Origin: Gemmatimonadota bacterium
GTDB lineage: Bacteria > Gemmatimonadota > Gemmatimonadetes > Gemmatimonadales > GWC2-71-9
Direction of reading: 5' to 3'
Length of the DNA stretch: 64,000 bases
Assembly (NCBI GenBank): GCA_039586365.1
Contig: JBDHKN010000006.1
Coordinates: forward strand, 32,001-96,000
Part shown: one piece after another, positions 39,001-45,000 of the stretch
How positions within the stretch are numbered: the stretch's first letter is position 1
Layout: each line of letters begins with the position of its first letter
Program-made: the position numbers

Positions 39001-42000
39001 GCGGCACCGGCAATCCCTCCCAAAACCAACAAGCCAACCAGACCACCGAGCAGGTACAAACCGAAATGGAACGGAAACGAGCGGAGCCATTGTTGCAGGT
39101 TGTGTTCGCGAACGCCGGCAAGCAATAGAATTTCGGGAACCATGAACTTCAGTTCGCCAAGCATGGATGACTCACGTGGCTTGGTCCACCAATCAGATTC
39201 CTCGAGGTACGAACCACCGTAGCTTGCCCGACCCTTCTCGTGAGCGACAGGGTAGAGCTCCCAACGCAAGTGAATGGGCAACCGGACAATCTTCACGCCG
39301 CGCCAGACGACTGCCGCGACAAACACGGCAACTGCAGCGTACGGCAGAATGAGCAGCATTAAACCCACCTTCAGTCCTCCGTTCGGGACCGCCTCTTGCG
39401 GTCCATGAGTTCTCTGATAGCACCGCTAGTATCAGCGGAATCGGTCTGGTCGTGCACGAGACTCTTGATCTCTTCGGTGCACAATGAGCCGAACCGGTAA
39501 ACCACGCACCTGCGGCACTCGTTCCCCTGAGGAGCGCAGTTGAGTCCCTTGATCATCCAGCATGGTCGGGTGGTCTCCTTGTACGCGGGACAGCTCTCGC
39601 GAGTCTCAGCCTTGCAGGGCAGCAAGTCCCAACACGGGAGCAGCGCTTGCATCCTGCGGATCGCTTCGACATTGAGACCGGAGTTCTGGATCAGGTGGTG
39701 GACGTTATTCACTCGGCTGATGTCTTCGTGCGAGAAGAGACGATGCTTGGAGGCGGTCCGGTGGGCGATTATGAGACCTTCATTCTCGTACTTTCGGACA
39801 GCAGAGACGGAGAGGCCCACCTTCTGCGCCAAGACCCCGATTGAGATTACGGGGTCCTCGATCTGTGGTGGATCTATTTCGCTAGGCGTTTGCCCGTCGT
39901 AGTCGTATCCCATCAGGCAGACCGCTCCATAGAAGGAAATCTATTATCTACAGTGCAGGAAATCTGTACGGTAGAATTAAGTTTTCTTTAGGCCGCGTAC
40001 TGACTGGTGGGTGTAGGGGCAGCGGGACTCGTTGATCGAACGATCGTTCGCCATCAACGGTCGGCTCAATCGTCTCGGCGAAGTGACTCGTTACGACTCG
40101 TGACGGCGCAGTCTCTCGTCCATATAGCGCTGCACGGGACTGTAGTCGAGATATCCTGTGGTCAAGATCATAAAAGAAATTGTTGACGTGCTAGCCTGCT
40201 GCACCTCAAAAGACCAATCGGTCTTCGCCTGGCGTGGCGAAGACCGACTCACTCACTCTGTTGAGCAGCAGAGGACCCCCGAGCTGGCCTAGGCGAGCAA
40301 CTCAGTGACCATGTCGACCAATTTCTGATGGTCCACGGGCTTGCTGATGTAGCCCTCAGGCGGAGGTACCTGACGTCGGGAAGAGATGAACTTCTCGAAC
40401 TCGTCCGAGATGCCGGTGATGATAATGACGGGGATGCTCTTCAGATGATCGTCCTGTTTCAGCCTGCGGTAGACTGCAACCCCCGACTTCTCAGGCATGG
40501 TGATATCCAATGCGACCAAGTCCGGTGCTGCCTGTTCGATCATAGCAATCGCTTCAGCCCCATCGTTGGCCGTGGCAGTGACAAACCCGTGGTCTTGCAG
40601 GACGGTGGTTAGGAATTCGCGTGCATCGGGATCATCATCTACTACCAAGACGGTCTTCGCGTCGTCAGGCATGTGGCCCATCCTTTTCGGTCAGATCAGA
40701 ACTGTCCGGCTCATGCTGCGTCGGTCGCACCCTAGGTAGTTTTACGACAAACTTCGTCCCGACGCCAGGTTGGGACTCCAATTCGATGGTTCCTCCATGG
40801 GCCTGCGCGATGCGGTCGGAGATGAACAACCCCAGCCCGGTGCCCGTTCCCTTCGAGGAGAAGAACAGAGTGAAAGCCCGCTCCTGCGTCTCTTGATCCA
40901 TCCCGATCCCATTGTCCTCGATCTCGTACCTGATGTGGTCCGCTAATCCTTGTAGCCTCACCACTACCTGAGGGGTCGCCTGCTTATCGTCCAACCTGCA
41001 TGCATCCAGCGAGTTCTCGATCAGATTCACCAGCAGGGAACGAACGGCTTGGGCGTCCGCCTCGAACTCGCCGGCTGATTGATCGACCGACGTGATCAGC
41101 TGTACCTGGAGATCCTTGGCTCGAGATTCCATCAGACCGCAGACCTCTTCTGCAACCAGCGGAGCTGAAAGTGGTTCCCAATTGGGCACTCTATCCTTCG
41201 CGTAGTAAAGGATGTCTGACACCATGCTGCGGATCCTGGCCACGTTCCGATTGACCGTCGCCCAACCCTTCTTCACTCGTTCTTCGTTGCCCTTCGTAAA
41301 ACCGGAGTCGACCAAATACATGCCACCGGCCAATCCGTTGAGGAGACCCTTGAGACCGTGAGATACTGAGCCGATCAACAACCCAAGCTGAGTCAAGCGG
41401 TCCTCCAACTCCCGAACATCGGTTATGTCGGCGCTCATCTCCATCACACCTGTCGTGCCACCCTCTCCGTCGGGAATCGGTGCAGTCGTAACGAGCACGT
41501 TCCTGTGCTTACCGTCCAGCGACGTGACCACCTCCTCCCTGGTGTGGGGTTGGCCGTCATCGAGAGTTTCCTGGACGGGGCACAGTGCACACGGTTCGCT
41601 GCGATGCTTGTACGCCTGGTAACATTTGCGGCCAAGACCGTTGCCGAAGTTCTCCTGGAAGGCGCGATTGGCATCGACGATGTTCAGGTCAGGATCCTGA
41701 ATCGTGATGTAGCAGGGCACTTCGTCAAACAGCGTGTGATAACGGCGTTGGCTCCGGCGCAGCAACTTCTCCATGTTCGTGTGGTGGGTGATGTCGGTAG
41801 ACATCTCCATCACCGTGGTGATCTTGCCCGCCTCGTCGCGAATGGGGGTGGTTTGTACCATGACCGAGAGTTCGTCTCCATCCAGCGTGCGGATCTGCTC
41901 TTCGCTCTCGTGCCGCTCACCGTCACGAAAGGTCCGCGCCACAGGACACACCTCACACCTCTCGGAGCGCTTCTTGTAAACCTGATAGCAATAGCGTCCT

Positions 42001-45000
42001 TCGAAGTCGCCGAAGTCCTTCCGGAACCGCTGGTTAGCGTCGACGATCCGGAATTCTCGATCCTGAACCGTGAGGTAACACGGCATAGCCTCGAAGTAAT
42101 GTCGATACTGAGAGTCCATGGCTCACTCCCGGACACTCAGACGGTGCGAGCTCTGTGTGTCAACAGTGAGATGTCGATCCAGCCCAGCCTGCGGGCGGGC
42201 GGAACATTATTCCTACAAGCCCACTGGCTACACCTTCTTGCTTTCGTGGGCCAACTCGAGAACCTTCCGCACGTTGAGTAAGAGCCTCTCTTCGTCCACG
42301 GGCTTGTCCAAGTAGCCCTCGGGTCGCCTGACCGAGCGGTCGTATATGAGCCTACGTAGTTCGGGCCTGCCTGTAATGATGCAGATCTTGAGATCCTCGA
42401 GTTCGGGATCCTTCCGTAGGATCTCGAAGACCTCACCCACGTCCCGACCAGGCATATGCAGGTCGAGCGTCAATAGATCTGGTTTCTCCCGCCGCGACAG
42501 TTCCAGGGCCTCGTCGCCGCTCATGGCCCTGAACACGGTTGCGCCGTTGTCCTCTAGCACGGTGGCGAGAAACTCCACCTGATCGGGCTCGTCATCGGCA
42601 ACCACCAAGGTCCGACCCGCCAGCGGAAGTCCCTCGACTACGGCCGGCTCTGCAGCGATCGGCTCTGCAACAGGCACGGCTACCTTCTCCTCGATCACCA
42701 GCGCGTTGGCCACCAGGTTGACCAGCTGTGTCACCTCCATGCCGAGTTCGTAGTGGCGTATCACGTCGGTGAGCCCGTCCACGCAATTGTGGCAAGACGT
42801 TACGACCGCTTGAGCACCGGTGTCCTTGAGTTGGTTTGCCTTGACAATGGCTGACTTGAGCCGTTGCGGCGTGTACTCAGACATGGACATAGCACCGCCG
42901 CCACCGGTACAGCAGTAGTTCTCGGTCCGGTTCGGGTACATCTCGCGAAAGTCCTCACATACTAGCTGTAGCAGCTCACGCGGTTCCTCGAACAGGCCGC
43001 AGCTCCGAGCGTTGTTGCAGGAGTCATGAAAAGTGACCGGCTTGGTGTTGCGGCTCTTGTCCACCTTGATCCGACCCTCCTTGATGTAGCGGAGCATAGT
43101 GAGGACAGAACTCTCCATCTCGAACGGCACATCGAACTTGGCCCAATTGGGGCCCTCGCAGCGAGTGGATCGGTAGCCGTGGCCACATTCAGAGATGACG
43201 AGCCTTTTGCCGCGAAATTCCTCGACCTTCTCATACAGGCGCTGGGCAACCGACCCGCCCAAGGCGTCGTCGCCCGAAAAAAGGCCGAAGTTGGTCATGT
43301 CCCAGCCTTCACTCGGCATGGTCCAATTCTCACCCGCTGCATGGAAAATCTTGGCCGCGTCCGCGATGCTGCGCGGGTCGTATTTCACCTCGCGTGGATT
43401 GATGGAATAGACAACCTCGCAGTCCATCTGATCGATCGGTATGGCAACCGAAGGATCATCCAGTTCGTCCTGCAGCTCTTCCTCCATCCACTCGAGCGTC
43501 TCGAGATAATCTTCCTTGAGAACGCCCATCTGATTCCCGATCTCCCATTGGTCCTTGCTGACCACTGCCACACCCTCTGGCATGATCCCGACTGAGACTA
43601 GGAGGCCTCTTGCCATCCGGTTGAACGTGGCGAAATCGACACCCATGGGGCAGTTGATCGAGCAACGCCGGCAGTTGGTGCACTTGCCGAACACGATGTC
43701 CTTGAGTTCTTCCAGCTCTTCATCCGTGTAGACGCTCCCGGCCTTCACCCACCAGGGGACGACCCGGCCGGTCCAGTCGAAGTGCTTCTTGAACAGCTTA
43801 CGAATCCTGTCCGCCTTGTAGGGTGGTGCGTAGGTCGGGTCGCCGGGATTCGCCAACACGTAGTGGCAACAGTCGATGCACATTCCGCAGTGCACGCAGG
43901 CTATCATCGATCCGGCTATCTGACGGTTGAGCTTTTGGCCCATCCGCTCTATGACCTTCTCGGCCTTATGAGATCTCGTTCTTGTCTGGCTCATGGAATC
44001 TGTCTTTCACTCGCTTGGTAGTCCCTTCGGCTATCCGTGCTGGAGCGGATAGACACCCCGGTAGCCCATGCTCTTACCGAAGTAGTAGCGTGTGAAGGGG
44101 TAGTAGAGATAGTGAGAGATCTTGCTGAACGGAACGTACACCAGGAAAAACGCCGTCAGTATGAAGTAAGTTACCAGATGCCACTCCCCGTTTGCGGTGG
44201 AGTTGGGCACGGCCAGGACTGCGAAGAAGAACCACACCGTCAGCAATGTCAGCGAGAAGTAGTCGTCCGGGGAGCTGATGGCCCTCATGTAAGGGTTGGT
44301 CACCCTCCGGATCATCCGCACAACCCCGACCAGACAAGCGGCTCCTATCACCAATTGCAGCAGTACTGTAACCGTGGAGCTCTGCAGCAGACCCGCGCTG
44401 TACGGAATGATGAACGACAACGCGATCGCAGCCGTGACCCCGAGATGGAAGATTGCGAACTGTACATACATGAGCGGCTTGGACCTGGTGCTCTCCATCG
44501 CCCAAGGCATAGCAATGTTGGCCCATGAGTAGAGGATTCCCTTTGCCTTAGTGGTGTTCAGTCTTCCGGTTGGCGCTTGGCGCTCTGTTCCTGCCTTGAA
44601 ACGTCGCAGGAACCAGGTGATGCGCATGACATAGACCAGAGCCATGAACCCCAGGGCAACTTCCTGGAGAGTGTGCTCCGCAAAGTGTAACAGGTCGCTC
44701 ATCGCGTGCTCTCTCGGTTAATCCAAGGCCGCCAGTGCAGCCTTGAAGGAGTTGTATTGCGGCGTGTCCAAAACACAGATGACAATTTCTTTGATGCTGC
44801 ATTCGCCGGCCAGGCGGTTCTTGAACACGTCCATCATCACTCGGGCGCTGACTTCAGGCAAAATCCCGTAGTAGCCCGCTCCCATAGCCGGGAAGGCGAT
44901 CTGCTCGATGCCCTTTTCTTCGGCCCGTTTCAGGCAGTTGAGGACGGTGGTGTATAGTTTCGTCTCCGTGTCTTGTTCTTGGAACCGCGGTCCCACGGCG

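Follow-up and report, generated by a model that had tools for sequence, protein, structure and literature searches.

A one-CCG iron-sulfur subunit fused to a receiver domain, in a cassette with a macro domain, a cytochrome b and a PAS histidine kinase

What does a receiver domain do at the end of a respiratory iron-sulfur subunit? The question is raised by a window of 64,000 nucleotides from a Gemmatimonadota contig, in which a first-pass annotation had described one ORF as a response regulator with a heterodisulfide-reductase-type active site. No paper on the fusion cassette was found in the open literature, and four motifs of the fusion had no match in the covered part of the supplements of PMC10564751, where sequences are given for some of the genes only. 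All coordinates below are window coordinates.

Organization of the cassette

The cassette lies on the minus strand and begins with a gene for a macro-domain protein of ~180 aa (44718..45260, Pfam Macro 2e-27), followed by a cytochrome b-type membrane anchor of 223 aa (44031..44702), the fusion (42228..43994), a soluble PAS-PAS histidine kinase of 484 aa (40665..42119, Pfam PAS_4 twice and HATPase_c) and a single-domain DVU0259-like receiver of 130 aa (40289..40681, Pfam and NCBIfam matches), the last being an optional part. All ORFs were found in the order first annotated, from the membrane protein, fusion, kinase and receiver on to the MerR, Nitrate_red_gam and Fer4_8+CCG genes, but the limits then given to the cassette, 40289..44702, are one gene short, as the macro-domain gene, lying 15 bp ahead of the membrane gene, is part of the unit. 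The MerR-type regulator and DsrM-like/DsrK-like pair (36811..39913, minus strand, Pfam and NCBIfam matches) are indeed present downstream, but they are rejected as a fixed part of the cassette because they are not constant across related loci and occur without it in genome G125.

The window also contains a sat-apr-qmo-dsr island (4591-26399) holding a DsrC gene (14486..14803, plus strand), the product of which has both C-terminal cysteines and is the candidate substrate. An unfused analogue at 56875..64000 on the minus strand comprises HmcF/DsrK-like, HmcE-, HmcB- and HmcC-like genes, a PAS kinase and two free DVU0259-like receivers. The G+C content is 57.4% in the cassette, 57.1% in the dsr island and 60.2% in the genome; base composition gives no sign of the recent transfer considered earlier, though cassette and island may have been transferred jointly.

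The Fe-S core and its membrane anchor

The fusion of a CCG subunit to a receiver is genuine. A single fused ORF is found in 71 of 80 loci, and chance fusion, frameshift and assembly artefact are therefore rejected. Homologues number roughly 2,500. As annotated, the Fer4_8 (1e-8), CCG (7e-10) and Response_reg (3e-15) matches of Pfam fall on one ORF, the length of which had been given as 571 aa; this counts from the second ATG, and a start giving 588 aa is favoured, with 79 of 80 relatives aligning over residues 7-17.

Residues 1-434 (42693..43994, minus strand) constitute the Fe-S core, with two ferredoxin-type cluster motifs, an SECGH catalytic-cysteine motif and one five-cysteine CCG motif. 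Over 80 related loci every one of these cysteines (eight in the ferredoxin motifs, one in SECGH, five in the CCG motif) is invariant, at 79-80 of 80 rows, which bears out the conservation claimed before, and the core as a whole is conserved to 83-86%. Two ferredoxin motifs, one five-cysteine CCG motif and an xECGH cysteine place the core in the one-CCG DsrK/HmcF/TmcB superfamily, the same set being given for DsrK, HmcF and TmcB (bioRxiv 2023.08.03.551783). The nearest solved fold is EtfD (9OJN, E 9e-12), and the PDB search returned no solved DsrK, HmcF or TmcB sequence. In a quick tree the core forms a separate clade beside HmcF/TmcB and not with DsrK. The NCBIfam scores are 333 bits for HmcF (NF045711, cut-off 750) and 317 for TmcB (NF045724, cut-off 735), and with its own clade the core is not a member of either family. 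Identity with DsrK is rejected by its separate branch and by a score of 253 bits where the cut-off is 400 (NF045796) and the true DsrK of the window reaches 727. HdrD/HdrB identity requires two CCG motifs and is likewise rejected, since there is a single CCG match and the first motif is reduced to one cysteine. The label DsrK/HmcF/HdrD-like of the first-pass annotation is thus narrowed to HmcF/TmcB-like.

The membrane protein, said earlier to have no family match, shows similarity below the cut-offs to HmcE (3e-15) and TmcC (1e-13). Only two of its histidines are invariant, His86 (76/76) and His197 (77/77), and in a weak profile alignment (E 0.03) these fall in the columns of NarI His56 and His205. 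Histidines are missing at the columns of NarI His66 and His187, where the DsrM and HmcE-like proteins of the window have them; the assignment of these pairs to the hemes of NarI is from PMC5338063. Of the ligands of the di-heme proteins NarI, DsrM and HmcE the proximal pair is thus present and the distal pair absent, and the anchor is predicted to be a cytochrome b of the NarI/HmcE/TmcC type keeping only the proximal-heme histidine pair. Counted against a single heme are the N-terminal His6 (64/75) and His10 (65/70), which could supply other ligands.

Receiver, kinase and macro domain

The receiver occupies residues 461-588 (42228..42614, minus strand) and is joined to the core by an Ala/Glu/Val/Pro-rich tether at about residues 435-460 (42615..42692, minus strand). 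The residues annotated as D450, D451, D494, T524 and K547 are all at their positions and become D467/D468/D511/T541/K564 in the 588-aa numbering. Among the rows reaching each site the acidic pair is conserved in 72/72, the phospho-acceptor Asp in 70/70, Thr/Ser in 69/69 and Lys in 68/70, and the model and fold matches give a (beta-alpha)5 fold with an rmsd of about 2 A. The receiver is accordingly complete, as was claimed, and by its residues and predicted fold should be phosphorylatable. It carries the subfamily signature G-x-P-E-L-R-x-L-I-Y and no fused receiver has a DNA-binding domain. The nearest NCBIfam model is DVU0259_DivK (NF045717), to which neither the fused receiver (67-72 bits) nor the free receiver (102 bits) belongs at a cut-off of 160. 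The tether varies threefold, from 24 to 77 residues in the loci where it is measurable, and is predicted to be disordered (pLDDT < 50 in AlphaFold2). The AlphaFold2 model of the whole fusion (pTM 0.58) carries no docking information, and a complex prediction of core and receiver scored 0.00, which weighs neither for nor against docking.

Receiver and kinase are found side by side in 67 loci and are jointly missing from five; neither is ever found without the other. The kinase is kept or lost together with the receiver, which supports a coupling of the two. Each PAS domain of the kinase has a C-x10-C-x2-C motif, with C136 as a further cysteine; C44/55/58 are conserved in 65/65, C136/166/177/180 in 66/66 and H254 in 65/65, and no solved structure turned up as a relative of the PAS domains (best E 0.04). 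In 46 of 60 loci a receiver gene on the same strand follows the kinase, while in 8 of 60 the fused receiver is the sole one near it. The five receiver-less cores keep every catalytic cysteine, indicating that the enzyme is of use even where the signalling parts are missing.

Where there is room for it, the macro gene precedes the membrane gene in 71 of 72 loci; it is missing from all three loci of a variant with 57% core identity. Alignments to solved macro domains show that D-I-T and both glycine-rich loops are kept, with VNAAN replaced by VFYAx and GGGVD by GSGFG (F/Y-Y-A-x and G-x-G-F/Y-G in the family). The residues that are catalytic in the hydrolases are thereby replaced, and judged by the NAAN and GGGVD..H motifs the protein does not class as a MacroD-type ADP-ribose hydrolase. 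The genome carries two other macro genes. The only longer proteins found to contain this macro domain were two animal PARP14 proteins, which is weak evidence that it has no natural fusion.

Distribution

The cassette occurs almost exclusively in uncultured sulfite-respiring bacteria. In one phylum-wide sample dsrA is present in 39 of 41 carriers, with two carriers among the 129 genomes without dsrA, yet the cassette is present in only 39 of 72 dsrA genomes, and it is therefore a dispensable accessory of sulfite respiration. Some loci, L067 and L075 among them, have it inserted inside dsr operons. The unfused relatives, with 39-44% identity, are never in dsrA genomes (0/31) and adjoin genes for class-V aminotransferases resembling cysteine desulfurases or DsrE/Hdr genes, indicating that the substrates of this fold are not limited to DsrC. 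In two relatives (P0132 and P0228) a DsrC-like domain occupies the place of the receiver.

Proposed function

The reading we prefer, with a probability of about 0.45, is that the tethered receiver takes a phosphate from the kinase and in turn gates a non-electrogenic quinone:DsrC-type sulfur-carrier oxidoreductase. Cytochrome b and CCG subunit would form a two-subunit, cytoplasm-facing enzyme that exchanges electrons with the quinone pool on one side and, on the other, with a protein-bound di- or trisulfide, most likely that of DsrC. With the proximal heme only, a transmembrane redox loop would be impossible, and we propose a non-energy-conserving side entry beside the DsrMKJOP of the host. 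The kinase might bind a metal or Fe-S centre on its PAS cysteines, use it to sense redox state, oxygen or sulfide, and phosphorylate Asp511, and the phospho-state would toggle the receiver between docked and free, so gating the enzyme in either sign; the macro domain may add an adenine-nucleotide input in most lineages. This reading draws on the invariant cysteine motifs, the joint presence and loss of kinase and receiver, the intact receiver-less cores, the loci with a sole receiver, the lack of a DNA-binding domain, the dsrA association, the DsrC-like domain at the receiver's place, a second receiver type fused to a sister core (P0123) and the missing distal heme ligands. The earlier description as a response regulator with a heterodisulfide-reductase-type site is upheld as far as the intact receiver, the full CCG and catalytic motifs, the kinase coupling, the dsrA link and the relatives with DsrC-like domains go. 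A long, variable tether that is predicted to be disordered is unlike rigid allosteric coupling and counts against this reading. Also counted against it are the free receivers with the same signature, the DsrC-like tails of the relatives, which end without C-terminal cysteines, the unfused relatives in genomes without dsrA, and the macro-less 57% variant.

The redox module might instead be the sensor, its cluster or substrate state setting the accessibility or stability of the phospho-receiver, so that the fused receiver is a redox-controlled phosphate sink or phosphatase trigger tuning the free DVU0259-like receiver and other targets. The flexible tether, the frequent second receiver sharing the kinase, the high conservation of the core and a one-heme anchor suited to reading out the quinone pool all fit, but the kinase has Cys-rich sensor domains of its own, no Hpt domain was found among the window neighbours scanned, and the five intact cores lack receiver and kinase, three of their genomes (which are incomplete) having no receiver match at E 1e-22; we consider this quite unlikely. 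Alternatively the fusion may only fix the location and amount of a receiver that forms with the kinase an independent module acting on another protein, leaving the enzyme unregulated. This genome encodes two free receivers with the signature, next to a hydrogenase and a cupredoxin cluster, and two others adjoin the kinase in genomes whose core is receiver-less; free receivers are nested within the fused clade, in G028 and G040 the core is separated from receiver and kinase, and the window itself has the unfused core-kinase-receiver arrangement. Against this fairly improbable explanation, the fusion is retained from 57% to 94% core identity, two different receiver types are fused to this core, and free copies are found only in genomes also holding the core (1/251 in the order).

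Gating could also be real with a substrate other than DsrC, such as a TusA/DsrE-type carrier, a cysteine desulfurase product or a small thiol, for instance in oxidant defence when facultative hosts meet oxygen. The neighbours of the dsrA-less unfused relatives point in this direction, as do the four further DsrK/HmcF-like subunits and two heme-copper oxidase subunit I genes of this genome, and even for Hmc and Tmc the partner on the cytoplasmic side is not known (PMC4215793). Near-exclusive occurrence with dsrA and insertion inside dsr operons speak against this very improbable explanation.

What is known of how dissimilatory sulfite reduction is controlled concerns mostly transcription and activation by DsrD, and many newly found sulfate reducers also respire oxygen and must switch quickly. 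If the kinase-receiver pair is wired to the DsrK/HmcF-like subunit, there would be a direct post-translational control of the DsrC cycle, testable at H254, D511 and C270, and the cassette points to signalling that may control electron flow directly instead of gene expression. The fullest version is doubtful: a kinase with a new Cys-ligated PAS sensor would switch a respiratory membrane enzyme on or off through a phosphorylated receiver on a non-cubane Fe-S subunit, with a repurposed macro domain reading an adenine nucleotide, as a post-translational valve on the DsrC cycle in oxygen-respiring sulfate reducers. The cassette would also be a minimal two-subunit system for the role of HmcF/TmcB-type subunits, and brings with it a PAS cysteine motif not yet characterised and a macro domain whose pocket is altered.

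Comparison with known systems

Closest are the Hmc (HmcE/HmcF) and Tmc (TmcC/TmcB) complexes of Desulfovibrio, which like the cassette combine a cytochrome b anchor with a one-CCG Fe-S subunit having a T/GECGH-type cysteine, give the fusion its best NCBIfam scores and share its region of the tree. In contrast, the cassette scores far below their cut-offs in a clade of its own, lacks the distal heme histidines and has no periplasmic cytochrome c or further subunits, its neighbours in the window and related loci being the macro domain and kinase, and the receiver is fused. In Desulfovibrio the receiver gene rrf1 comes after hmc, while a kinase gene and that of the DVU0259 receiver lie ahead of tmc. 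The locus tags DVU0258-0260 and DVU0530 are absent from the main text of PMC3333781.

DsrMKJOP is a menaquinol:DsrC-trisulfide oxidoreductase for which an in vitro assay exists (PMC10861901 / bioRxiv 2023.08.03.551783). Its DsrMK part has the same cofactor layout in the Fe-S subunit and, like the cassette, is found together with dsrAB and DsrC. Two hemes are bound by DsrM (PMC10504309), whereas the cassette anchor has ligands for one, the cassette's Fe-S subunit lies on a separate branch and scores below the DsrK cut-off, and the cassette is missing from about half of the sampled dsrA genomes. NreB-type Fe-S PAS kinases are a precedent for sensing of oxygen or sulfide by a PAS-bound cluster (PMC13478379), being soluble with three conserved cysteines per sensor domain like the cassette kinase, but their motif is CX2CX11C(X2C) and not CX10CX2C twice, and the kinase is not of that type. 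The macro domains of MacroD, YmdB and AF1521 match the cassette protein at the fold level but differ in the pocket motifs.

Enzymatic-output response regulators such as receiver-thioredoxin reductase, receiver-pyruvate phosphate dikinase and receiver-glycosyltransferase also place a receiver on a metabolic enzyme, presumed to be under kinase control (PMC5847659). The text of that census, which covers archaea only, does not contain the terms heterodisulfide, Fe-S or oxidoreductase. The fusion differs from these regulators in having its receiver at the C terminus and, as the enzyme, a respiratory Fe-S subunit that is membrane-bound.

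Organization of the gene cassette

On the minus strand the window encodes a membrane anchor of 223 aa (44031-44702), a 588-aa fusion protein (42228-43994), a histidine kinase of 484 aa (40665-42119) and a single-domain receiver of 130 aa (40289-40681), followed by MerR, DsrM-like and DsrK-like genes, just as the first-pass annotation had ordered and placed them. Its claim of a CCG reductase joined to a receiver was borne out, as Pfam Fer4_8, CCG and Response_reg lie in a single frame of the long ORF. The receiver residues it named were found where it put them in a 571-aa protein, but a longer start is favoured, since 79 of 80 relatives back the 588-aa numbering, in which these residues are D467, D468, D511, T541 and K564.

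The comparison set was the best 80 of 432 related stretches from a scan of GTDB species genomes. A single fused ORF is present in 71 of these loci, core and receiver are adjacent ORFs in two, five have no receiver and two are cut by a contig end; with 71 of 80 loci fused, an artefact could be ruled out. Of 8,000 candidates scored in a protein search, 2,580 were relatives at E 1e-30, a count that takes in unfused relatives too and is not a number of fusions; the 120 relatives listed, the best of the 2,580, all have CCG and Response_reg. The CCG-receiver fusion is real, conserved and apparently undescribed.

The unit had been drawn too small, since a macro-domain gene (44718-45260) opens the cassette, upstream of the anchor in 71/72 loci, and the anchor directly precedes the fusion in 77/78 (contig ends set aside in both counts). 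The common order over the 80 loci is macro domain, anchor, fusion, kinase and an optional single receiver. Where at least 1 kb of downstream sequence is available (72 loci), receiver and kinase are both present in 67 and both absent in five, and never does one occur alone. Of 60 loci, 46 have a same-strand receiver gene after the kinase, five have one on the opposite strand and one has it further along, leaving eight with the fused receiver as the sole receiver near the kinase. The downstream MerR and DsrM/K-like block, correctly reported for this window, is not a constant feature, being found in some loci only and without the cassette in genome G125. A more distant variant, with 57% core identity and seen in three loci, retains the anchor, the fusion and the kinase, and has a helix-turn-helix regulator in place of the macro gene.

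Iron-sulfur core and membrane anchor

Eight ferredoxin cysteines, C270 of the SECGH motif and five CCG cysteines are invariant, receiver-less loci included. This motif set is shared with DsrK, HmcF and TmcB, which are described (bioRxiv 2023.08.03.551783, in part) as having a single CCG motif together with a presumed catalytic cysteine in T/GECGH. The core scores 333, 317 and 253 bits on the NCBIfam models of HmcF, TmcB and DsrK respectively, all under cut-off, whereas the true DsrK of the window reaches 727 bits on the DsrK model. A quick tree built from 59 sequences places the fused cores in a clade of their own with support 100 (99 when P0123, a related fusion, is included); the clade lies within an unresolved group holding HmcF and TmcB, apart from DsrK.

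The anchor shows weak matches to HmcE and TmcC, and its only invariant histidines are His86 and His197. In a weak alignment (E 0.03) these fall on His56 and His205 of NarI, and the His66 and His187 columns are Ser and Tyr. NarI binds its proximal heme by His56/His205 and the distal one by His66/His187 (PMC5338063, in part), and DsrM is reported to hold two hemes (PMC10504309, in part). The anchor thus probably carries one heme and would have no transmembrane electron path, although His6 and His10, which occur in most relatives, could provide other heme ligands. The distal-heme histidines are also missing in the alignment of the neighbouring DsrM-like anchor, M2 (38433-39368).

Receivers, kinase and macro domain

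The phospho-acceptor Asp is kept in 70/70 rows, Thr/Ser in 69/69 and Lys in 68/70. Core and receiver are joined by a tether of 24-77 residues, rich in Ala, Glu, Val and Pro, with pLDDT below 50 in the predicted structure; the receiver folds at 85-93. The fused receivers form a separate subfamily (support 97, signature G-x-P-E-L-R-x-L-I-Y), within which free copies nest. Two such copies of this genome (G000:C118:30040-30483 and G000:C51:36060-36473) lie beside membrane [NiFe]-hydrogenase/hyp and cupredoxin-ferredoxin clusters; no others were found among 251 genomes of the order with 16 candidates scored per genome. In two of the five genomes whose core lacks a receiver, a single free copy adjoins the kinase.

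In P0123 a sister core is joined to a receiver of another, DVU0259-like type, which points to a second fusion event. P0132 and P0228 have a DsrC-like domain without terminal cysteines at the receiver's place on a related CCG core. Another related core, P0167, has an N-terminal Rrf2 domain and may be a frameshift product.

The macro domain retains D-I-T and both glycine loops, and NAAN is changed to FYAx. NAAN is among the residues with a role in macro-domain hydrolases, and from these roles the change would remove hydrolase activity.

The kinase is soluble and has His254 and, in each of two PAS domains, C-x10-C-x2-C, invariant in 65-66 rows, suggesting a metal or Fe-S site on these cysteines. 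NreB kinases are described as sensing oxygen or sulfide through PAS-bound Fe-S clusters (PMC13478379, in part), but with a different cysteine motif, and the accessible part of a PAS survey mentions few domains with cysteine motifs (PMC10468136).

Genomic setting

The window contains a complete island for sulfate respiration, made up of aprBA, qmoABC, sat, dsrC, dsrMKJOP, dsrAB, a DsrL-like flavoprotein gene and a DsrN-like gene, and its DsrC keeps both C-terminal cysteines. The QmoC match (12005-13072) starts at model position 57 and scores under cut-off. Two RsbRD_N (DsrT-like) genes are present, at 48370-48891 and 14937-15470, one ahead of dsrM and the other distant from the island. The MerR-type regulator (39371-39913) has a Cys-rich C-terminal domain with several C-W and C-x2-C motifs, to which none of the libraries searched gave a name.

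The genome has four further DsrK/HmcF-like subunits and two heme-copper oxidase subunit I genes. An unfused Hmc-like operon (56875-64000, continuing to 97891 of G000:C97) encodes HmcF/DsrK-, HmcE-, HmcB- and HmcC-like proteins, a PAS kinase and two free DVU0259-like receivers. It stands behind a sigma-54 activator, its HmcC-like protein (674 aa) has a long C-terminal extension, and no HmcA is in view at 56875-64000. Another DsrM/K-like pair (L003, G000:C49:1480-6713) lies between two genes, one for an excisionase-type HTH protein with a fused DsrC-like domain, the other for a tandem DsrC/TusE-like protein.

Distribution

dsrA was found in 42 of 50 cassette carriers searched, these being drawn from the 80 after omission of 10 with dsr genes in the fetched DNA, with 20 others unsearched. 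Among 251 genomes of the window's order, dsrA is present in three and the fusion in this genome only; G125, of the same family and 96% complete, lacks the fusion and has a dsr island that is near-identical. Among 201 genomes of the phylum of G050, another genome compared, 72 have dsrA and 41 the fused clade (three as partial matches), 39 of these 41 with dsrA, and none of 31 genomes with a 39-44% unfused relative alone has dsrA. Kin are not independent, so these counts are tallies and not a test; they indicate that the cassette is an accessory, occurring almost only with dsrA, and in about half of the dsrA genomes of the G050-phylum sample.

Unfused 40% relatives (anchor and core at loci L108-L111 and L087, from genomes that lack dsrA) are arranged tail to tail with a cysteine-desulfurase-like class-V aminotransferase, a neighbourhood seen in several genomes of two phyla. 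Record titles of the related stretches name Gemmatimonadota, Planctomycetota, Acidobacteriota, Zixibacteria, Calditrichota and others, and are unreliable, as three 'Ignavibacteria' records share a GTDB phylum with one 'Zixibacteria' record.

Proposed function and alternatives

Core and anchor may together act as a non-electrogenic quinone:DsrC-type oxidoreductase, which the tethered receiver would gate when phosphorylated by a kinase that responds to redox state, oxygen or sulfide, with the macro domain supplying a nucleotide input; we give this tentative reading a probability of about 0.45. Three observations favour signalling from kinase to enzyme: the core remains intact where the signalling parts are absent, the kinase carries its own sensor motifs, and several loci offer the fused receiver alone, without a DNA-binding output. 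The reverse, with the enzyme as sensor and the fused receiver as a redox-controlled sink, is for these reasons unlikely.

The main results against a gated oxidoreductase are the variable tether and the free receiver copies. That the fusion is a mere tether and the receiver acts elsewhere is as unlikely as the sensor reading. Gating could also be real with another sulfur carrier as substrate, which we regard as quite improbable. For Hmc and Tmc, too, the partner is described as unproven (PMC4215793, in part).

Comparison with known systems

Receiver genes presumably adjoin hmc and tmc. The locus tags DVU0258-0260 and DVU0530 are absent from the main text of PMC3333781, and a thioredoxin preprint, in its accessible part, mentions regulators of the tmc operon and nothing more on receiver genes there. 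Searches of the open literature, some of them noisy, gave among the matches listed no paper that describes a macro gene within dsr clusters or a CCG-receiver fusion. Tables of domain architecture in subscription journals or bioRxiv supplements may list the fusion; it is also absent from the accessible parts of PMC10591310 and PMC6338057. Receiver-enzyme fusions are already a known class, and the available part of an archaeal census, with no Fe-S oxidoreductase-receiver fusion, has receivers fused to thioredoxin reductase, pyruvate phosphate dikinase, KaiC and glycosyltransferase (PMC5847659). The fusion cassette is built of known parts, and their arrangement is new.
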